Shown here in pieces: positions 28,741 to 46,486 of a stretch of DNA of 64,000 nt. The DNA comes from an uncultured bacterium (GTDB taxonomy: Bacteria; Actinomycetota; Acidimicrobiia; Spongiisociales; UBA5794). Every line of letters begins with the position of its first letter. Within the stretch, counting starts at the first letter, position 1. The notes below the pieces were generated by a model. That model was not told where the DNA came from. It saw only the letters and a list, made by a program, of their open reading frames with translations, and did no database searches. A program made the translations under genes and the position numbers. The stretch is taken from NCBI GenBank assembly GCA_963801165.1, contig CAWDDT010000009.1, positions 416,001 through 480,000 on the forward strand. The letters are read 5' to 3'.

Positions 28741-28802
28741 CAAGGGATTTGAGAGGTGGGCCCGGTGGGAATCGAACCCACGACCTTCGGATTAAAAGTC
28801 CG
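28735..28802. repeat. att direct repeat (68 bp)
   Basis: Identical to 10559-10626. Confidence 0.95.
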
Positions 28803-28829
28803 CTGCTCTGCCTATTGAGCTACAGGCCC
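28757..28829 (-). tRNA. tRNA-Lys (anticodon TTT)
   Basis: GGGCCTGTAGCTCAATAGGCAGAGCAGCGGACTTTTAATCCGAAGGTCGTGGGTTCGATTCCCACCGGGCCCA cloverleaf; CCA not fully encoded. Confidence 0.97.
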
Positions 28830-28893: not shown

Positions 28894-29592
28894 CTACAAG
28901 CGATGTACCGGCAGAACGTCCGCCGGGATCTCTCCGAACACGTCTTGAAGCACCCGGGGCGGCGCGGTCTCCTTGGTCAGTCGGGCGTCCTGAATCCGGT
29001 CGAGTCGGAACACGCGCCCGTCTTTGCGTAGACGACACCAAGCAAACACGAGCCAGCGGTCACGATCACGGCCCATCGCCATTGGCTCGATGGCCCTCCG
29101 TGTCAGCTCTCCCTGCCCGTCCACGTAGTCGATGTTAACTACCCTGCCCGTCCGGACCGCATCTCCCATGACCTGCATCGCCCGTGTCGAAGGCTCGACT
29201 TGAACGTCCCGCACGTACACGCGATCGGCTTCTTCCTCGAATCGCCGACGTGTGCTCTCGTCCATGGTCGCCAGGATCTTGTTGAGCGCGGTACGCCCCT
29301 GTGGCTCGAACGGCAGCCCGCCTCCTACCGCAAGCGCCACTGCAAGGGCGAGCACCTCGCCCGTCGTGAAGGCGATCGGCGGTAGCGTCGCGGTGCTATT
29401 CAGCACGTATCCCCCGCCCGGCCCGATGGACGTCCAGATCGGCAGGCCGGCCTGCTGGAGCGCCGACACGTCCCTCTTGATCGTACGTTCCGACACCTCG
29501 AACCTGCCGGCGAGACGTGTCGAGGAGAGGGGTCGCTCACCTGCTGCCCGGAGCTCCTCGACTATGGCGTAGAGGCGGTCGGTGCGATTCAT
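28894..29592 (-). CDS. YafY/PafB-like HTH-WYL transcriptional regulator
   Basis: MNRTDRLYAIVEELR, FEVSERTIKRD, GPGGGY, WLVFAWCRLR..RVFRLDRI. Confidence 0.92.
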   Translation of the reverse strand: MNRTDRLYAIVEELRAAGERPLSSTRLAGRFEVSERTIKRDVSALQQAGLPIWTSIGPGGGYVLNSTATLPPIAFTTGEVLALAVALAVGGGLPFEPQGRTALNKILATMDESTRRRFEEEADRVYVRDVQVEPSTRAMQVMGDAVRTGRVVNIDYVDGQGELTRRAIEPMAMGRDRDRWLVFAWCRLRKDGRVFRLDRIQDARLTKETAPPRVLQDVFGEIPADVLPVHRL

Positions 29593-29648
29593 CAGAATCT
29601 CCAAAAGGGTGACATAACGGTGGCAGCGTGTCATCGCACAATAGAGCC

Positions 29649-30509
29649 ATGGAACAGACAACACACCATCTCATCAAACGATCTGACGGCGGCGATCTGT
29701 CGATCTGGACCATCGGTCCCGACAGTGGCACGCCGCTGGTCCTCTGTCATCCCGCCCCGGGATCGGGTCTGTTCGACCCCGATCCGGTGGCCACCGCGGA
29801 GGCAGGGATCCGAATCATCGCCCCGGATCGTCAGGGCTACGGTGCATCGAGCCGCTCGGCCTCGCCGGCAACGATTGCGGAGGCCGGTCGTGACGTCATG
29901 GCTGCGCTCGACCACTTCGACGTGTCCCGAGCCGCCGTCGCCGGATGGTCTGCGGGCGGTCGGGTGGCGATGTGGGTCGCCGCACATCACCCGGACCGCA
30001 TCCACTCGCTTGCGATTGTGGCAACGCCGGCCCCACACGAGGACGTGCCGTGGATCCCGGCGGAACAGGTTGCGCTGATCGATGCAATGCGGGCCGACCC
30101 GGCTACCGCGATCGATCAGATGGTGGCGATGTTCGCGCCCATGGTGACCGATCCATCGGTCCGCAGGAGCTTTCTCGCGCCGAGCCCGGCCGACACCCTG
30201 GCAGTAGAGGCCGACCCGGGTCTCCGTGCTCGCGTCGAGGCCATGCTGGACGAAGCATTCCGGCAAGGGGCATTGGGGATGGCAGCAGACATCGCCTCGT
30301 ACACGATGGCCGGATGGGGGTTCGATCCATCCAAGATCGCAGCCCCGACGGTCGCATACAGCGGATCCGAAGACGTGGTCGTCCCGCCGGCGCACGGCGA
30401 GTGGTACACAGAAAGAATCCCACGGGCGCGGCACGTTGTGGAGACAGGGGCCGGGCACCTCGTGATTGCCCGGGTCTGGCCGAGAATCGTCGAGCACCTC
30501 CCAGGCTGA
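29649..30509 (+). CDS. Alpha/beta hydrolase
   Basis: DRQGYGAS, nucleophile elbow GWSAGG, GSEDVVVP, GAGH; divergent from the WYL gene with TGACA..TGTCA between them. Confidence 0.9.
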   Translation: MEQTTHHLIKRSDGGDLSIWTIGPDSGTPLVLCHPAPGSGLFDPDPVATAEAGIRIIAPDRQGYGASSRSASPATIAEAGRDVMAALDHFDVSRAAVAGWSAGGRVAMWVAAHHPDRIHSLAIVATPAPHEDVPWIPAEQVALIDAMRADPATAIDQMVAMFAPMVTDPSVRRSFLAPSPADTLAVEADPGLRARVEAMLDEAFRQGALGMAADIASYTMAGWGFDPSKIAAPTVAYSGSEDVVVPPAHGEWYTERIPRARHVVETGAGHLVIARVWPRIVEHLPG

Positions 30510-30635: not shown

Positions 30636-31070
30636 GTGTCACGTCTTCGCTCTCAGGCAGGGTCCGTCACCATCTGGGGGATCGGGCTGACGCTGGTGAT
30701 CGCCGCCTTTGCCGGAATCGTCATCGACACGTGGCGGGTGTTCGCCGTGCGTCAGGATCTCTCGGGGATGGCCGACGCAGCCGCCATCGCCGGGGCGACG
30801 GCCATCGACATCGATTATCTCAACGAGACGGGCGAGGTCATCCTCGACGGCCCTGAGGCGGAGGCCCGGGCGCTCGAGTATCTGCAGCGTCAGGACGGAT
30901 GGTCAGCCGAGATCACCTACGCCATCGTCGCCGCCGGCGACGGGTCCGAGCTCACGGTGACGCTCGACGAGGACGTGGATTTCACCCTCGTTGGGGCGCT
31001 GCTCCCCGGCGAGGAGCCGTTCCATATCGCGGTGACATCACTTGCCTCTCCCAACGTGGTAGGGCCGTAG
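30636..31070 (+). CDS. TadG/TadE-like minor pilin
   Basis: QAGSVT prepilin-type site, TM, then L...ADAAAIAGA. Confidence 0.75.
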   Translation: MSRLRSQAGSVTIWGIGLTLVIAAFAGIVIDTWRVFAVRQDLSGMADAAAIAGATAIDIDYLNETGEVILDGPEAEARALEYLQRQDGWSAEITYAIVAAGDGSELTVTLDEDVDFTLVGALLPGEEPFHIAVTSLASPNVVGP

Positions 31071-31112
31071 GCCCGTCCCGTGCCCGGGCGACAAGCGATA
31101 GCCTTGCTTTCC

Positions 31113-32927
31113 ATGATTCGGTTTGGGATCTCGCGCATGCCACCCGAGGGCGTCGAGCACGGAGATTGGCTCGACTCACTGCTTGCTCGCGGGCACAACG
31201 CCGTCGAGCTGCCCTTTGTCACCGGATTCCCCTGGAAGGAGAAACAGTGCGCCCGGTTCGGGGAGCTGGCCGCCGACCGCGGGATCGCCGTGTCGGTGCA
31301 CGCCCCATACTTTGCCGTCCTCACAGTCGATGACCCCGAGAAGCGGGGCAAGACACTATCCGCGCTGGAGCACACGATGAAGCTGGGCCGGGAGCTGGGC
31401 GCCCACACCATCGTGGCGCACACCGGCCACGTCAAGGACCGCAGCCCCGAGGAGCTGCATGCGCTGGTCGCCGACGGGCTGAGCACCATCGAGCCCAAGG
31501 TGCGGCACCTCGGCGTCGCCCTCGGGTTGGAGACAGCAGGCAGCGACCGTGCCTTCGGCTCGCTCGGCGACATCGCCCTCATCGCCAAGGAGTTCTCTTT
31601 CGTGCGTCCGGTCATCGACTGGGCACACGTCCACGCCAAGTCCGGTGGCGGTCTCACCAGCCGAGACGCCTTTCTGTCCGTGATCGCGTTCCTTCGTAGT
31701 GAGTTCCCCGGCTGGGCAATAGACCCGCTCCACACCCAGTTCACCGACAACGAGTTCGGAGTGCACGGGGAGATCCGACATCTCCCGTACGGTGAGGGGT
31801 CGCTACGGGCCAACCTTCTCGGCGAAGCCGCCGCAGCCGCAGGACTGCGCATGATCGTCATCTCCGAGGCCCGGGAGGAAGCGAGTCACGATCTGATCCA
31901 GAAGGATCTGTTCGCCGGCGTGGCCGCTGTCCGGCCGACCGCCGCCGAGGACGGCGAGCCGCTCGCCGATGCCGACATCGAGTTCCCAGACCCGATTCGG
32001 ATCACTCCCGATCGAGACGGGTACCGGGCGGTCGGTCTCGACCGAGAGGTCCGCATCTCCAACCCGCACAAGCCCTTCTTCGGTGACGAGTACACCAAGG
32101 GAGACCTGATCCAGTACTACGCATCGATCGCACCCGTGCTCCTGCCGCACCTAGAGGGCCGGGCGCTGTCGATGAGCCGCTACCCGGACGGTACGCACGG
32201 CGGCTCGTTCTACGAGAAGCAGTGCCCGTCGCACGCACCCGACTGGCTGGTGCGGGCGCCGATCCACTCGGGCCATCGCGGCGAGGAGATCGAGTTCTGC
32301 ACCGCCCCCGACATCGAATCGCTGGTGTGGCTGGCCAACATGGCATGTATCGAGATGCACCCCTGGCTGAGCCGGGCCGAGCGTCACGAGTACCCCGACT
32401 TCGCAGTGTTCGACCTCGATCCTCAGGAGGGCGCCACTTGGAGCCAGGTGACATACACAGCCAACCTCATCAAGGTGATCCTCGACAAGCTCGGCCTCGC
32501 CGCCTACCCCAAGACGAGCGGAGCCACGGGCATCCATATCTACGTCCCCCTCGACCCGCTCTACGAGTACAGCCGGGTCCGGAAGTTCGTCGAGACCGTT
32601 GGCCAGTTGATCGTCGCCGCCGACCCGGACACCGTCACGATGATCTGGGACAAGCCGAAGCGCGGGCCCAAGGTGTTCATCGACCACAACCAGAACGTGG
32701 GCGGGAAGACAATCGCCTCTGTCTATTCGGTGCGACCCCACCCAGGTGCGCCGGTTTCCACCCCGTTTCTGTGGGACGAGCTCGAGACGGTGCAACCAGA
32801 CGACTTCACCATGGCCACCATCTGGCCGAGGCTGCGCCAATACGGCGATCTCTTCGCCCCGGTGTTGAGTGGTGGGCAGACCCTGGAGCGGGCGGAGGTG
32901 GCGTTACACCTCGCCCCTGAGGACTAG
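31113..32927 (+). CDS. Fusion: endonuclease IV-like TIM barrel + LigD-type primase-polymerase domain
   Basis: N-half SVHAPY, AHTG, LETAG..FGSL, IDWAH.HA, LHTQF, GEIRH, ISE; C-half SNPHK, TKGDL..YY, RYPDG, FYEK, EMHPW, FDLDP, KTSG..GIH, IDHNQN, YSVRP; one continuous frame. Confidence 0.9.
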   Translation: MIRFGISRMPPEGVEHGDWLDSLLARGHNAVELPFVTGFPWKEKQCARFGELAADRGIAVSVHAPYFAVLTVDDPEKRGKTLSALEHTMKLGRELGAHTIVAHTGHVKDRSPEELHALVADGLSTIEPKVRHLGVALGLETAGSDRAFGSLGDIALIAKEFSFVRPVIDWAHVHAKSGGGLTSRDAFLSVIAFLRSEFPGWAIDPLHTQFTDNEFGVHGEIRHLPYGEGSLRANLLGEAAAAAGLRMIVISEAREEASHDLIQKDLFAGVAAVRPTAAEDGEPLADADIEFPDPIRITPDRDGYRAVGLDREVRISNPHKPFFGDEYTKGDLIQYYASIAPVLLPHLEGRALSMSRYPDGTHGGSFYEKQCPSHAPDWLVRAPIHSGHRGEEIEFCTAPDIESLVWLANMACIEMHPWLSRAERHEYPDFAVFDLDPQEGATWSQVTYTANLIKVILDKLGLAAYPKTSGATGIHIYVPLDPLYEYSRVRKFVETVGQLIVAADPDTVTMIWDKPKRGPKVFIDHNQNVGGKTIASVYSVRPHPGAPVSTPFLWDELETVQPDDFTMATIWPRLRQYGDLFAPVLSGGQTLERAEVALHLAPED

Positions 32928-33500
32928 ATCGACGGCGGCGACGATCAGGTTGTGCTCCACCTCGTGGATGCGCTTCTCGAGATCGTCCAAGGACTCTCCC
33001 GGGAAGATCGGGACCCGCTCCAATGTCACCACAGGCCCCGCATCGACCTCAGGAATCACCCGATGCACCATGACGCCCGTCTGGGTGATCTCACCTTGTT
33101 GGAACGCGGTGTAGGCCCTCTCGATGGCGTGTGTCCCGGGAAAAGTCCCCGGCAACGCGGGATGCAGGTTGATCACCTTGCCGGGAAAGTGCTCGAGGAA
33201 CGCCTCGCTCAGCACGAGCATCCAGCCGGCCAGCACCACCAGGTCCGGCCGGTATCCGGCGACGAGCCCCGCCAGCTCGACATCGAAGGCGAGCCGGTTG
33301 CCCCCGTCGGCGAGCACGTTCCCCAGGTCCATGATCTCGGTGGGTATTCCGGCGCGCTTTGCCCGGGTCAACCCGAACGCATCGGGATCGCTCGAGACTA
33401 CCGCTGCGATTTCGGTGTCGAGATCACCCGCCGCGACGCTGTCGATCAGCGTCTGGAGGTTGGAGCCGTTACCCGAGATGAGAACGACGATCCTGCTCAC
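32904..33500 (-). CDS. purN: Phosphoribosylglycinamide formyltransferase
   Basis: VLISGNGSNLQ, VLAGWM, INLHPALP, GVMVH...VDAGP. Confidence 0.96.
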   Translation of the reverse strand: MSRIVVLISGNGSNLQTLIDSVAAGDLDTEIAAVVSSDPDAFGLTRAKRAGIPTEIMDLGNVLADGGNRLAFDVELAGLVAGYRPDLVVLAGWMLVLSEAFLEHFPGKVINLHPALPGTFPGTHAIERAYTAFQQGEITQTGVMVHRVIPEVDAGPVVTLERVPIFPGESLDDLEKRIHEVEHNLIVAAVDLVLRGEV

Positions 33501-35822
33501 GTCAGCTCAACCGGCTTGCCCGTGCGGGGCACGATCTCGCCAATGCGCCACGCATCGGGGCCGATGATCTCCATGGCGCCGGCGGCGTCGTCGGCGGCGA
33601 CGACAACCAACATGCCCGCCCCCATGTTGAAGGTTCGGAACATCTCTTCGTCGGGGACGTTGCCTTGCGAGCGGATCATGGCAAACAGCGGCGCCGGCGA
33701 CCACGTCGATGTGTCTATGCGCATTGCCATGTCGTCGGCGAGAACGCGGGCAGGGTTCTCGATGAGACCACCCCCCGTCACGTGAACGAGCGAATGGATG
33801 GAGATGCCCGCTTCCCGGATGCTCATCACCTCGCTCAGATAGCTGCGGTGCACGGCCAGCAGCGCAGCGCCGAGCGACGACCCGAGTGCGGCGACCCGAT
33901 CGTCGAGATTCCAATGTTCGAACACCCGGCGGGCCAGCGAATAACCGTTGGTGTGTAGCCCGGTGGACTTGATGGCGATCACGGCATCGCCGATCTCGAT
34001 GCCGCTGTGGTCGATCGCTTCCGCCCGGTCCACCACCCCCACGATCGTACCGACGACGTCGAGCTCACCCGTCCTGTAGACGCCCGGAAGCTCGGCGGTC
34101 TCACCACCGAGCAGAGCGCAGCCCGCCACCCGGCAGGCTTTCGCCATACCCCCAACCACGGTGGCGGCGATGGCGGGATCGAGTTGGCTGGTGGCGAAAT
34201 AGTCGAGAAAGAACAGAGGCCGGGCCCCCTGGACGAGAACGTCGTTGATGCAGTGGTTGACGATGTCCTGGCCGATGGTGTCGTAGCGCTGCATCGTGGT
34301 CGCGATGGTGGTTTTGGTCCCGACCGAGTCCGTCGACGCCACCAGCACCGCGGTCGGCGCCGAGCCCGGATGCGTCATACATGCCGCCGAACGCCCCGAT
34401 GCCGCTGATCACCTCGGGCCCATAGGTGGAAACGACGGCGCGTTTCATCATGGCGACCGCCCGCGTTCCGGCGTCGATGTCGACCCCGGCGTCGGCATAG
34501 GTGGTCGACCTGGGCAGCGGGCTCTGCCCGGAGTCTTCGATCGTCCCGGAGATCCTTCCGCCGATGTCGTTGCGGTATTGCATGCCGGCGAAGTCGATGT
34601 GCTCGATGCCGTGATAGGCGCAGGCCAGAGCCATCGGCAGAGTTGGTTGCACCCCGGTGACGGCCAGGACTCTTCCACCAGCGGTGACGACATCGTCGGC
34701 AAGTGCGGTTCCGGCGTGGAATACCGTGACGCCGGGCACGCTGTTGGCTTCGCCGATGCCCGTGATGGGAATCCCCCTCTCGTACTCGCCGGGATACCCC
34801 GCCGAGGCGGCCACGACGGTCGCCGCCACTGCGTCCTCCCATTCGACGATGAGCTCATCGAGGGTTCCCGCCACGCAGGCCGACAGGATCTCGTAGAGGT
34901 CGCTGTGCAACAGAGGCAGCACCACTTGCGCCTCCGGGTCGCCGAACCGGCAGTTGAACTCGAGCACCTTGGGCCCGTCGTCGGTGAGCATCAACCCCGC
35001 ATACAGCACCCCCACATAGGGGTGTCCTTCCCGCGCCAGCTCATCGAGCACCGGTCGCATCACCCTCTCCACGACCTGAAGCTCCAGGGCCGCATCGACC
35101 AGCGGGGTCGGAGCGTATGCCCCCATGCCACCGGTATTGGGTCCCTTGTCGCCGTCGAGCAGCGGCTTGTGGTCCTGGGCGGCCGGCATCAGCGCGATGG
35201 TGGCACCGTCGCAGAAGGCGAGGACGGTGGCTTCCTGGCCCGTCAGGTATTTCTCGATGAGGACTTCGTCTCCCGATGCGCCGAACTCGCGGTCGACCAT
35301 GATCCGGTGCAGGGCGTGGTTGGACTCGGCGAGGGAGCCCGGGACGATGACCCCTTTCCCGGCGGCGAGGCCGGAGGCCTTGATAACGACCGGGTACGCG
35401 GCCGACCTGACGTACGTGACAGCTTCGTTGTAGTCGGTGAAAGCGCGGTACCCGGCGGTGGGAACCCCGGTCTTCTCCATCAACTCTTTGGAGTAACGCT
35501 TCGATCCTTCCAACCGCGCCGCAGCGGCATCAGGTCCGAAACAACGGAGTCCTGCGCTCTGGAACCTGTCGACGATTCCCACGGTCAGTGGCGCTTCCGG
35601 GCCGATCACGGTCAGGGCAATGTCGTTTGTTGTGGCGAATTCGATGAGCTCGTCGATCTCGTTCTCGCTGATCGGGACGTTCTCGATCTTGCCACCGGCG
35701 CCTGCCGTGCCACCGTTGCCCGGGGCGACGAAGACCTTGCGCACTTTCTCCGACTGTGCCAGTTTCCATGCGAGGGCATGCTCCCGTCCGCCACCTCCGA
35801 CAACGAGCACCATGTCGGTCAT
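33497..35822 (-). CDS. purD: PurD-PurM fusion (GAR synthetase + AIR synthetase) with a 1-nt frameshift near 34350
   Basis: GGGGREHAL, NTGGMGAY, EFNCRFGDPE run in frame into the PurM start YADAGVDIDAG..GAFGGMY; the rest of PurM (STDSVGTK, GGETAELP, GLHTNGYSL, HVTGGG, RTFNMG) is in the next frame. Confidence 0.85.
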
Positions 35823-37297
35823 CTGTTCTCTCCTTCGCCGGACCACGCACCCTGGAAGGCCATCTTGTCCCGGCTCTCCCAGTAGGAGTCGAGCTTGATC
35901 GGGTACTCGCCCGAGAAGCAGGCGTTGCAGTGGCCGGCGCCCGGAGGTGCCGCCGACTCGACCGCCTGCATCATCCCTTCCTCAGACAGGTAGGCGAGCG
36001 ATTCGGCCCCGATGTGCTTCCGGATCTCCTCGGTGGTCTTGATGAATCCGATGAGCTGCTCGCTGTCGGCCATGTCGATTCCCATGAAACAGGGATGCCG
36101 CACCGGCGGTGACGACACGCGGACGTGAACCTCGGCAGCGCCTCCTTCCCGCAGCAGCGAGACGAGCGGGCCGGCCGTTGTGCCGCGGACGATCGAGTCG
36201 TCGACCAGAACGACCCGCTTACCCTCGAGGTTCGATCCGAGCGGGTTGTACTTGAGATGCACTCCGGAGCGGCGCAGCTGCTCACTCGGTTGGATGAAGG
36301 TACGGCCGATGTAACGATTCTTGGTGAGACCCTCCGTATACGGGATGCCGGAGGCGGCGGCGTAGCCGATAGCCGCAGGGGTAGCCGAGTCCGGGACGCC
36401 GACGACGACGTCTGCCTCGGCGGGTGCTTCCCGTGCTAGAGCCTCGCCGAGCTTCTGGCGCACCTTGTGGATCGATTGGCCCTCGAACACCGAGTCGGGA
36501 CGGGCGAAGTACACGTACTCGAAGACGCACAACGAGGTCCGGGTCGGGGTCATGCCGATCGTGCTGTGATAGCCGTCTTTGTCGAGACGGATGATCTCGC
36601 CGGGGGCTACCTCGCGGACGAACCGGGCACCAACGGTGCCGAGGGCGCACGACTCGGAGGCGACCACGTATCCGCCACCTTCCAGCTCGCCGACGCACAG
36701 CGGGCGGAACCCCTGCGGATCCCTGACCCCGAAGACGGCATCACGGGTCAGCACGACGAGTGTGTAGGCGCCCTCCGCCTCCCGCATGAAACCGGCGATT
36801 CTGGCTTCCCAGTCGGGACCGTTGTTGGTGCCCGTCGGGGCGGCGAGCATCTGGGTGATCACCTCGCTGTCGGTGGAGGAGGTGAGCCCGACCCCCCGTT
36901 CCAGCAGCTTGTTGCGGAGTTGGGGGGCGTTGGTGAGGTTGCCGTTGTGGCCGACCCCGAGCGGCCCGTGCATTGTCTCGAGCAGGTACGGCTGGGCGTT
37001 GCGGAGATGCGACGAACCTGTCGTCGAGTAGCGAGTCTGCCCGATGGCGAGGTGGCCGGTCAGCCGGGAGAGATTGCTCTCGTTGAAGACCTGGGAGACA
37101 AGACCCATGTCCTTGTGTACCGCCGCCGAGATGCCGTCGCTGGTGGCGATGCCGGCGCTCTCCTGGCCACGATGTTGGAGCGCATAGAGGGCGAAGAAGC
37201 TGATTCGGGCGACGTCGGTGTCGGGTGCGTAGATGCCGAAGACGCCACACTCCTCGTGCGGCCGGTCCAGCTCGTCGTCTCGCAGAAACCAGTCCAT
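35819..37297 (-). CDS. purF: Amidophosphoribosyltransferase
   Basis: EECGVFG, LQHRGQE, HNGNL, CVFEYVYFARPDS, VDDSIVRGTT. Confidence 0.97.
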   Translation of the reverse strand: MDWFLRDDELDRPHEECGVFGIYAPDTDVARISFFALYALQHRGQESAGIATSDGISAAVHKDMGLVSQVFNESNLSRLTGHLAIGQTRYSTTGSSHLRNAQPYLLETMHGPLGVGHNGNLTNAPQLRNKLLERGVGLTSSTDSEVITQMLAAPTGTNNGPDWEARIAGFMREAEGAYTLVVLTRDAVFGVRDPQGFRPLCVGELEGGGYVVASESCALGTVGARFVREVAPGEIIRLDKDGYHSTIGMTPTRTSLCVFEYVYFARPDSVFEGQSIHKVRQKLGEALAREAPAEADVVVGVPDSATPAAIGYAAASGIPYTEGLTKNRYIGRTFIQPSEQLRRSGVHLKYNPLGSNLEGKRVVLVDDSIVRGTTAGPLVSLLREGGAAEVHVRVSSPPVRHPCFMGIDMADSEQLIGFIKTTEEIRKHIGAESLAYLSEEGMMQAVESAAPPGAGHCNACFSGEYPIKLDSYWESRDKMAFQGAWSGEGENR

Positions 37298-45616: not shown

Positions 45617-46486
45617 ATGAAGCTGCATCTGATGGACGGGACCTACGAGCTGTTCCGTTCGCATTTCGGGTCGCCGACCCGCACCAGCCCGTCCGGCCAG
45701 GAGGTCGGCGGCGTCTACGGGATCGTCGCCTCGACCCTGTCTCTTCTGAGCGAGTCCGGCGTGACACATCTGGCCGCCGCCTTCGACACCGTCATCGAGT
45801 CGTTCCGCAACGAGGTGTATGACGGCTACAAGACGGGCGCCGGTGTCGAGGAAGTCCTTCTGGCCCAGTTTCCTCTTGCCGAGCGAGCCCTAGAGGCGAT
45901 CGGCGTGAAGGTGTGGCCGATGGTCGAGTTCGAGGCGGACGATGCGCTGGCAACTGCCGCCTGGCGCTGGGTGAGCGCGGTCGACCAGGTGGTGGTGCTG
46001 ACCCCGGACAAGGACCTCGCCCAGTGTTACGGGAACCCCAAGATCGTCGGCTACGACCGGCGCAGGCAGGCCTTCATCGACCATGACGCGGTTGTGGCTA
46101 AGTTCGGCGTTTACCCGGACTCGATACCCGACTATCTGTCACTGGTCGGGGACTCGGCCGACGGCTTTCCCGGTCTGCCGGGGTGGGGCGCCAAGTCGGC
46201 CGGCACGGTGCTGCAGCGCTACGTGCACCTGGAGAACATCCCGCTCGAGGCATCACGATGGGACGTCACGGTGCGAAGCGCCGACAAGCTCGCCACCACC
46301 CTGCGCACCCGGATGGGCGACGCTCTGTTGTTCCGGTTCCTGGCCCAGCTCCGCCCCGATGTTCCTCTCAGCGACGAGCTGGAGGATCTCGAGTGGCGCG
46401 GCGCCCACCGTGAGGCATTCACCGAGCTGTGCGACGAGCTTGGTTTCGGTGGGCTCCGCAACCGCCCGGAGAAGTGGCAGGACTAA
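45617..46486 (+). CDS. Stand-alone 5'-3' exonuclease / flap endonuclease
   Basis: LMDG, SFRN..Y..YK, FEADD, PDKD, LVGDSADG.PG.PG.G.K (H3TH). Confidence 0.93.
   Translation: MKLHLMDGTYELFRSHFGSPTRTSPSGQEVGGVYGIVASTLSLLSESGVTHLAAAFDTVIESFRNEVYDGYKTGAGVEEVLLAQFPLAERALEAIGVKVWPMVEFEADDALATAAWRWVSAVDQVVVLTPDKDLAQCYGNPKIVGYDRRRQAFIDHDAVVAKFGVYPDSIPDYLSLVGDSADGFPGLPGWGAKSAGTVLQRYVHLENIPLEASRWDVTVRSADKLATTLRTRMGDALLFRFLAQLRPDVPLSDELEDLEWRGAHREAFTELCDELGFGGLRNRPEKWQD

Follow-up and report, generated by a model that had tools for sequence, protein, structure and literature searches.

To which DNA repair pathway does a protein belong in which an endonuclease IV (EndoIV)-like barrel is joined to the primase-polymerase of a bacterial end-joining ligase? 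This question is raised by a gene at positions 31113–32927 (+ strand) of a 64,000-nucleotide stretch of DNA, hereafter the window, which corresponds to positions 416001–480000 of contig C9 in the genome of an uncultured bacterium of the class Acidimicrobiia (4.55 Mb in 13 contigs, 64% G+C, 98% complete). The initial annotation of the window proposed that the gene encodes a dedicated nick-and-fill enzyme of Ku-independent base excision repair (BER). [quoted passage not shown]

The gene is a single uninterrupted open reading frame (ORF) with an ATG at 31113, a stop codon at 32925–32927 and a product of 604 aa, as had been annotated. An in-frame alternative GTG is present at 31080; ATG 31113 is favored as the start because homologues begin at MIRFGIS. 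Two Pfam domains were found in the translation, namely AP_endonuc_2 at residues 25–256 (E-value 1.6e-25) and LigD_Prim-Pol at residues 328–581 (E-value 8.6e-89). Based on ligand conservation, AlphaFold2 modeling, and profile and structure matches, an N-terminal TIM barrel of the archaeal-type EndoIV-like kind was delimited to residues 1–272 (31113–31928, + strand). It is followed by an inter-domain segment of residues 273–309 (31929–32039, + strand), defined by block values of the predicted local distance difference test (pLDDT) and by DSSP, and by a C-terminal LigD-type primase-polymerase of residues 310–604 (32040–32924, + strand), identified using Pfam, TIGR02778, Protein Data Bank (PDB) matches and a phylogenetic tree.

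Modeling of the full-length protein using AlphaFold2 led to a model with a mean pLDDT of 92.0 and a predicted template modeling score (pTM) of 0.85. The sole low-confidence stretch covers residues 271–280 (block mean pLDDT 66), and DSSP analysis of the model revealed a beta-hairpin at residues 296–307, directly before the polymerase. A linker of about 60 aa had been annotated between the domains; such a segment exists, but it is mostly ordered in the model. Its sequence varies across 49 aligned fusion proteins, and the reading frame is kept in them. According to the model, the two domains are packed into one body more than they are strung like beads. When the barrel (1–272) and the polymerase (285–604) were predicted as two chains from an alignment that we supplied, the median interface score (ipSAE) was 0.56 (runs 0.65, 0.46 and 0.56), the best of three controls reached 0.03, at least 85% of the contacts were common to the runs and the pLDDT of the partner was 92 or more. 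Of 80 solved complexes, 58 attain the support mark of this procedure, as do 2 of 110 mismatched pairs; at an ipSAE of 0.60 or below it is attained by just 7 of the 80 solved complexes, yet by both mismatched pairs. The two-chain prediction thus ranks as weak support and is taken only to be consistent with the pTM of 0.85.

The C-terminal part had been described as a complete domain of AEP (archaeo-eukaryotic primase) type with the motifs DxD, SG..G.H, D..QN and N/K/K. These motifs were all recovered in the alignment of 49 fusion proteins, whose identity to the protein of the window ranges from 43 to 93%. Residues D434 and D436 (DxD), D524 (the third acidic residue), N528, S469, G470, G473 and, at the N-terminal edge of the domain, N317, K320 and K329 are invariant in this alignment, and H475 of SGxxGxH (469–475) is conserved in at least 90% of the proteins. 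Residues N317, K320 and K329 presumably form the 5'-phosphate pocket. The polymerase motifs align with those of the Prim-PolC structure 5op0.

The domain passes the ligD_pol equivalog-domain model TIGR02778 (238.5 bits vs. a cut-off of 214.7), and the other two primase-polymerases (Prim-Pols) of the genome, P0122 and P0123, fall below this cut-off (196.3 and 175.7 bits, respectively). Among solved relatives, the highest score was obtained for Prim-PolC of Mycobacterium smegmatis (200 bits), followed by the NHEJ polymerase of Methanocella (182 bits), PolDom of M. tuberculosis (142 bits) and LigD-Pol of Pseudomonas (121 bits). The two stand-alone paralogs are Prim-PolC-like and closer to Prim-PolC, with 325 bits for P0123 (alignment up to chain residue 343 of 6sa0) and 258 bits for P0122. 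The feature that defines Prim-PolC, the C-terminal Loop 3 (residues 313–333 in M. smegmatis), is described as locking the upstream duplex and as being needed on longer gaps (PMC7442782). Loop 3 was not found in the fusion, which can be aligned to 5op0 no further than chain residue 292. Beyond the polymerase envelope there are 2 residues in the protein of the window, 0–13 in the fusions and 31 and 35 in P0122 and P0123, respectively. In a maximum-likelihood tree, the polymerases of the fusions, of fusions with reverse domain order and of classical LigD proteins from sister genera are on one side, and P0122 and P0123 are on the other (support of the split 100/100). Taken by curated hidden Markov model (HMM) cut-offs, PDB bit scores, the presence or absence of Loop 3 and the LigD polymerases of sister genomes, the polymerase of the fusion is assigned to the LigD-POL type and not to Prim-PolC. 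The Prim-PolC framing of the initial annotation was given up: this is the sole Prim-Pol of the genome that passes ligD_pol, and it groups away from the paralogs. Stand-alone polymerases of the Prim-PolC/PolD2-like type with C-terminal extensions are encoded on contigs C4 (3490–4491, − strand) and C6 (622634–623605, + strand); neither adjoins the LigC gene on contig C13.

Bacterial end joining is described as consisting of Ku and LigD, the latter having up to three activities, namely polymerase, phosphoesterase (PE) nuclease and ligase, and the PE domain generates a 3'-OH end (PMC8656161). In the genome under study, Ku is encoded on contig C7 and adjoins a gene for a 326-aa ligase that passes the NHEJ_ligase_lig model (240.2 vs. 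227.75). Other ATP-dependent ligases are a LigC-type enzyme on contig C13 (472 vs. 296) and a LigB-type enzyme on contig C4. A PE domain was not found in this 98%-complete genome. It had been annotated that the window contains no Ku, ligase or PE domain, and the genome-wide search agrees: Ku, the LigC-type ligase and the ligase-only LigD are all present, on other contigs. Since Ku adjoins a ligase-only LigD, no PE domain was found and the polymerase is located elsewhere, the kit is split. Therefore, the end-joining kit of this genome consists of Ku and a ligase-only LigD, and the LigD-type polymerase is encoded at a different locus and joined to an EndoIV-like barrel.

The phyletic sample contained 301 genomes of the class, 77 of which belong to the same order as the window. 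A full-length fusion (query positions about 1–600 in one frame) was found in 55 of these 77 genomes, including the unpublished genome G254. In the family of the window it occurs in 4/17 genomes, the window's genome among them, and in the other seven families in 51/60. Ku was found in 52 of the 55 genomes with the fusion and in 8 of the 22 without it; for LigC the respective counts are 47/55 and 14/22, and for the PE domain 18/55 and 7/22. Fisher odds ratios for association with the fusion are 30 for Ku and 3.4 for LigC; these ignore relatedness and so overstate significance.

Of the eight genomes that have Ku but not the fusion, six carry a PE domain. In G273, which has no fusion, a domain scan showed the PE domain in a PE-ligase-polymerase frame that is divergent from Ku. 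In four genomes (G110, G202, G142 and G294), open frames of 848–869 aa adjoin Ku and their C-termini match the polymerase profile; in G038, a PE frame of 313 aa adjoins Ku. PE-ligase proteins lacking the polymerase were found in two fusion genomes examined, and a third showed PE only. Because two fusion genomes have PE-ligase proteins with no polymerase and G273 has PE-ligase-polymerase beside Ku, the fusion appears to occur where LigD has no polymerase of its own.

The fusion is real and conserved across an order of uncultured Acidimicrobiia. No internal stop codon was found in 53 of the 55 fusion genomes, and G186 and G214 have one TGA each. All matches with an E-value below 1e-100 in the class sample are within the order of the window, and other orders of the class gave polymerase-level matches only, with about 40% identity. 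A scan of species-representative genomes revealed 69 fusion loci in named genomes (50–82% identity), nearly all in metagenome-assembled genomes of Acidimicrobiia/Acidimicrobiaceae. In addition, PF01261 and PF21686 were both present in 120/120 protein clusters among the matches listed (68–100% identity); the architecture is clearly not unique to one assembly. Contigs from public metagenome runs of other studies cover the fusion gene, with no indels listed in any of four runs. One of them, a 2919-nt contig of another study, spans positions 30900–32120, from the barrel through the linker into the polymerase, and differs by 26 substitutions with no gap; 18 of the 23 substitutions listed between 31881 and 32088 are located at third codon positions of the fusion frame. 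These independent sequences thus cross the linker with no indels.

A search with residues 1–290 against 1.8 billion representatives yielded 719 relatives of the barrel (E-value up to 0.001). Most of them are stand-alone proteins of 250–300 aa, and stand-alone barrels with 60% and 42% identity were found. Nine positions of the barrel are putative trinuclear-metal ligands: H63, H103, E140, D169, H172, H207, E220, H223 and E252. An alignment of 89 barrel homologues showed no variation at H63, E220 and H223; conservation is 90% or higher at H103, E140, D169, H172, H207 and E252 and also at Y66, which is the HAPY tyrosine. We take the corresponding metal ligands of Escherichia coli EndoIV to be H69, H109, E145, D179, H182, H216, D229, H231 and E261. 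According to the literature, the EndoIV metal site is formed by nine residues, E261 among them (PMC2770678). The ligand motifs align with M. tuberculosis EndoIV in a HMMER alignment; one ligand differs, in that M. tuberculosis EndoIV and the genome's own EndoIV have Asp at the position of E220. Comparison of the barrel family with the genome's own canonical EndoIV using hhalign gave a probability of 97.4% (E-value 1.3e-11, 193 columns), and the ligand motifs align there as well.

When the family profile was searched against PDB sequences, MJ1311 (PDB 3wqo) was the top match (77 bits). It was followed by the EndoIVs of Staphylococcus aureus, Babesia, Thermotoga maritima, Bacillus anthracis, Geobacillus, M. 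tuberculosis, E. coli and Thermus thermophilus (73–42 bits), and below these by the UV damage endonuclease (UVDE; 42 bits), TTHB071 (34 bits) and sugar epimerases (31 bits or less). MJ1311 was listed by Kiyonari et al. as the EndoIV homologue of Methanocaldococcus jannaschii, and the similarly divergent PF0258 (PfuAPE) of Pyrococcus furiosus is an active AP endonuclease (PMC2770678). The AlphaFold2 model of the barrel alone (pLDDT 95.3) has the TIM-barrel fold of the xylose-isomerase-like superfamily. In a VIA-align comparison with structure representatives, the top four matches were EndoIVs (Z-scores 26.2, 25.9, 25.0 and 24.9), namely those of T. maritima (Z 26.2; root-mean-square deviation (rmsd) 2.9; 267 aligned residues), E. 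coli (Z 25.9; rmsd 2.8; 264 aligned residues) and two others. A look-up of the barrel in the ESM Atlas was uninformative, as the clusters returned had just the generic labels 'xylose isomerase-like TIM barrel' and 'Endonuclease IV (fragment)'. Altogether, it is supported that the barrel is of the archaeal-type EndoIV-like kind with the full ligand set kept, at scores below curated family thresholds. The pattern of Nfo metal ligands in its archaeal form, as annotated at the outset, is found at all nine positions (one with D replaced by E) and in the HAPY motif.

The data show the domain architecture and how well it is conserved, which metal ligands are kept, to which subtype the polymerase belongs and with which genes the fusion co-occurs; the catalytic activities, the substrates, the dependence on Ku and any hand-over of DNA between the two active sites we infer as follows. 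In this organism, the enzyme would provide polymerase and nuclease in trans to an end-joining system whose LigD is split. Its barrel would act as a metal-dependent phosphodiesterase of the EndoIV (three-metal) type, which would cut 5' of abasic sites and strip 3'-phosphate, 3'-phosphoglycolate, 3'-unsaturated aldehyde and perhaps 3'-ribonucleotides or 3'-terminal nucleotides to leave a 3'-OH. The LigD-type polymerase would anchor on a downstream 5'-phosphate and extend the 3'-OH so as to bridge a synapsed break or a short gap. A flap endonuclease could take off the displaced 5'-deoxyribose phosphate (5'-dRP) flap, and a separate ligase, either the Ku-adjacent one or LigC/LigA, would seal the nick. 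Single-strand gaps are probably served too, possibly together with the flap endonuclease that is often encoded nearby. It has been described that EndoIV is the best end processor for Prim-PolC/LigC repair in vitro, being without strong exonuclease activity (PMC5663958), and that abasic sites near ends are processed by LigD itself (PMC4770248, PMC6547435).

Several observations weigh against assigning the fusion to a split end-joining system as a nuclease-polymerase. The co-occurrence counts are uncorrected for relatedness, and three genomes (G028, G078 and G126; 98, 100 and 95% complete) carry the fusion and have no Ku and also no LigC. A PE domain is present in 18 of the 55 fusion genomes as well, and the idea that EndoIV takes the role of the PE domain of LigD fares accordingly: it fits the window's own genome, which has Ku, a ligase-only LigD and no PE domain found, and it does not fit these 18. 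The polymerase tree has 24 rows, a midpoint root and no named references, its LigD rows being from sister genomes. Ku, ligase, nfo or another Prim-Pol was found within 8 kb of the fusion at 0/69 loci. As for the barrel, it falls below the cut-offs of the curated nfo models used (TIGR00587 and NF002196-9), with 31.4 bits vs. 129.65 for TIGR00587 and 29.4 vs. 244 for NF002198; other members of its family score 18–66 bits on these models. Sugar epimerases and isomerases are less than 1 Z unit behind the EndoIVs in VIA-align (Z 24.8), where the tagatose-epimerase-like entry is MJ1311, and Foldseek puts psicose epimerase first by E-value and mixes EndoIVs with epimerases. PF1383 of P. furiosus, an Nfo-like protein in which some critical residues are missing, is described as having no AP-endonuclease or DNA-binding activity (PMC2770678). 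Finally, a search for a separate nfo, suggested with the initial annotation, revealed a canonical short EndoIV on contig C5 (NF002198, 381 bits); with a canonical EndoIV already in the genome, the role of the barrel may be narrower or different.

A more far-reaching version, which we hold only tentatively, is that the protein works as a rigid single machine. The EndoIV-like site would turn an abasic site or a dirty break end into a 3'-OH and would hand it to the polymerase with no release of the DNA. The fusion would then be an unrecognized end-healing module that arose in one order of Acidimicrobiia, and the pairing would have been selected through a swap in domain order. If so, Ku-dependent repair would gain AP-endonuclease and 3'-diesterase activity, which the PE domain is not known to supply.

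The model of the initial annotation, a dedicated Ku-independent BER enzyme, is rather unlikely in our estimation. According to it, the barrel would incise an abasic site, the polymerase would fill with strand displacement, a flap endonuclease would remove the 5'-dRP and LigC or LigA would seal the nick. The three fusion genomes that lack both Ku and LigC keep intact ORFs, which speaks for this model and for Ku independence, and LigC is present in 47/55 fusion genomes; however, the fusion tracks Ku (52/55 vs. 8/22) more tightly than LigC (47/55 vs. 14/22). Mycobacterial Prim-PolC, LigC and EndoIV reconstitute BER in vitro (PMC5663958), and the best solved-structure match of the polymerase is indeed Prim-PolC (200 bits). 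On the other hand, two paralogs in the genome are closer to Prim-PolC (325 and 258 bits), and the polymerase has no Loop 3, which is also described as needed for the short-gap mode of Prim-PolC (PMC7442782). Exonuclease III (xth) was not found in the 98%-complete genome (no TIGR00633 match), which favors a role in BER; should xth really be missing, the incision of AP sites would fall to the canonical EndoIV and perhaps also to the fusion. The canonical enzyme, being already available for BER, counts against this model.

The only recurrent function-related neighbor of the fusion also bears on BER. It is a stand-alone 5'-3' exonuclease/flap endonuclease (Pfam PF02739 5_3_exonuc_N and PF01367 5_3_exonuc), found at 25/70 loci, always downstream and on the same strand; 57 of the 70 loci have at least 1 kb of downstream flank. 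The gap to the fusion is 31 nt or less at five loci and 0.9–5.6 kb at the rest. In the window, an orthologue is located at 45617–46486 (+ strand), 12.7 kb downstream of the fusion (65% identity to the neighbor at locus L044 in a tblastn search); its matches to the NCBIfam models of the PolI N-terminus, 5'-3' exonuclease and Xni were all below the cut-off. Such an enzyme would suit nick-and-fill repair, but it would be just as useful in end joining.

It is improbable, in our view, that the barrel is not a DNA nuclease at all. In that case it could act on small molecules, as a phosphodiesterase or an isomerase within the xylose-isomerase-like superfamily, or it could be a catalytically silent domain that binds DNA or serves as a scaffold; the fusion would then tell little about end-healing. 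The missed nfo cut-offs, the near tie with sugar epimerases in fold searches and the precedent of the inactive Nfo-like PF1383 (PMC2770678) agree with this. Weak secondary matches to the cobamide phosphodiesterase CbiR were found family-wide (E-values 1e-3 to 7e-9), and the nearest solved structure, MJ1311, was deposited as 'uncharacterized' and 'D-tagatose 3-epimerase-like'. Because the fold fails to separate EndoIVs from epimerases, the profile scores and the set of ligands were decisive. The metal site of sugar isomerases and epimerases with this fold has four ligands, whereas nine EndoIV ligand positions and the HAPY tyrosine are kept across the 89 homologues, and the family profile gives EndoIVs 42–73 bits and epimerases 31 at most. 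Moreover, the barrel is joined to a DNA polymerase in both domain orders, and its residues are conserved as well as those of the polymerase in the 49 fusions. The chance that an assembly or sequencing error joined two adjacent genes in this genome is practically nil: the same assembly does have a likely frameshift in the nearby purD-purM gene, but the artefact is ruled out by the 120 clusters, the 69 loci from many assemblies, the 55/77 related genomes (53 with no internal stop) and the gap-free contigs of other studies that span the junction with substitutions mostly at third codon positions.

With the assignment to a split LigD system retained as the preferred one, two variants of the architecture are worth describing. 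The reverse order, polymerase and then barrel, was found in four clusters (P0134, P0274, P0275 and P0276; 600–641 aa), the last three with 47–51% identity; one is labeled Actinomycetota. In genome G086 (locus L088, contig C32, 2763–3770, − strand), a polymerase-only gene of 336 aa nests inside the fusion clade of the tree, which is apparently the result of either secondary loss of the barrel or rearrangement. This gene comes after one for an 893-aa protein with cadherin/Ig repeats and before a His_biosynth gene.

The immediate neighbors of the fusion in the window are common to just 1–8 of the 69 loci. On this ground neither the pur genes nor the Tad-like ORF nor the WYL regulator was counted as part of the system. 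A scan for promoters and terminators around the fusion gene gave nothing usable, and no RNA data set was listed as containing this stretch. Upstream of the fusion, a tRNA-Lys gene (anticodon ttt) is located at 28755–28829 (− strand), at a distance of 2.3 kb. Between this tRNA and the fusion are the WYL regulator, an alpha/beta-hydrolase-like ORF and the Tad-like ORF, a stretch that hardly any other locus has in common with the window. Clustering of neighbors, run with a filter on G+C content at third codon positions (GC3) against spurious high-GC ORFs, revealed a tyrosine-integrase-like ORF upstream of the fusion at seven related loci (L017, L019, L021, L036, L049, L054 and L056). The region upstream of the fusion looks like a variable, possibly integrative, spot.

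The regulator contains HTH_11 and WYL domains and a weak PafC-HTH match (28894–29664, − strand; 1.4 kb upstream of the fusion) and was matched at 1/69 loci. Regulators of the WYL/PafBC type control DNA-damage genes in Actinobacteria. On the other side, at 33497–35846 (− strand), purD and purM look like one fused gene, and the related locus L013 has an intact PurD-PurM frame of 800 aa. In the window, the match shifts from frame −3 (35840–34269) to frame −1 (34351–33503), which indicates a frameshift near 34270–34350, either an assembly error or a broken gene. At distant fusion loci (50–57% identity), a His_biosynth (HisA/HisF-like) gene and a glyoxalase-domain gene recur on the strand of the fusion and downstream of it, in some cases separated by lgt (L050, L051, L054, L057, L062, L064, L067, L068 and L075); these have no evident link to repair.

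A characterized protein that combines an EndoIV-like domain with a LigD-type Prim-Pol was not found in the literature, subscription journals being outside the scope of the search, and the term 'endonuclease IV' has no occurrence in a 2021 review on LigD (PMC8656161). The initial annotation had likewise known of none. The fusion appears to be an undescribed way of building a bacterial end-joining kit. In public records the protein goes under the names 'non-homologous end-joining DNA ligase', 'bifunctional LigD' and 'TIM barrel protein'; the database names need correction, since no ligase domain is found in the fusion by Pfam. A widespread order of uncultured actinobacteria appears to have rebuilt its end-joining toolkit, in which the ligase stays by Ku and the polymerase, moved to another locus, is joined to a nuclease of another kind; the relatives of this putative nuclease incise abasic sites and tidy up oxidized 3' ends. 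If the proposed activities are true, the processing of abasic sites and 3' blocks would be tied directly to the filling of breaks and gaps, and the boundary between BER and end joining in bacteria would be set by which modules are fused.

A comparison with known systems indicated that the fusion is closest in part to LigD with its PE, ligase and polymerase domains. Its polymerase passes the ligD_pol model, groups with LigD polymerases and co-occurs with Ku, and it shares its chain with a putative end-healing nuclease, just as the LigD polymerase does with PE. Unlike LigD, the fusion polypeptide has no ligase and does not adjoin Ku. The nucleases also differ: that of the fusion is a TIM barrel with nine ligand positions, whereas PE has an unrelated fold with an active-site manganese ion (PMC8656161). 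Nor does the fusion behave as a simple substitute for PE, with which it co-exists in 18 of the 55 fusion genomes. EndoIV-like behavior, if present, would include the cutting of internal abasic sites, and we know of no such cutting by PE.

With EndoIV (Nfo/Apn1, and also PF0258 and MJ1311) the barrel shares the TIM fold, the nine metal-ligand positions, the HAPY tyrosine and the best profile and structure matches. It differs from EndoIV in scoring below the curated nfo models, in having E220 in place of Asp, in being fused to a polymerase and in occurring in a genome with a separate canonical EndoIV. Mycobacterial Prim-PolC (PDB 5op0, 6sa0) is the best solved match of the polymerase and follows the same logic, in which EndoIV cleans the 3' end, the Prim-Pol fills and a ligase seals (PMC5663958). 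Unlike Prim-PolC, the fusion polymerase has no Loop 3; LigC is encoded on contig C13 and the fusion on contig C9, with no ligase within 8 kb at the 69 loci.

Finally, family X polymerases of bacteria and archaea with a PHP domain at the C-terminus (PolX-PHP, for example PolX of Bacillus subtilis) fill gaps and also have a nuclease in the same chain. Nine residues form the active site of that nuclease, which acts as an AP endonuclease, a 3'-phosphodiesterase, a 3'-phosphatase and a 3'-5' exonuclease (PMC6616362). Here too, a single polypeptide would couple a gap-filling polymerase with a nuclease of nine ligand positions. The building blocks are different, namely an AEP polymerase and a TIM barrel in the fusion and a Pol-beta-like polymerase and a PHP domain in PolX. 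No match of the fusion to PolX or PHP was found in Pfam, NCBIfam or PDB sequence searches, and the relationship is one of convergence, not membership. The idea of incising and filling with one protein is not new, because PolX-PHP already joins a polymerase and an AP- and 3'-cleaning nuclease. If its activities are as proposed, the fusion would be a natural compact 'clean-and-fill' enzyme that reached the same solution as PolX-PHP by convergence.

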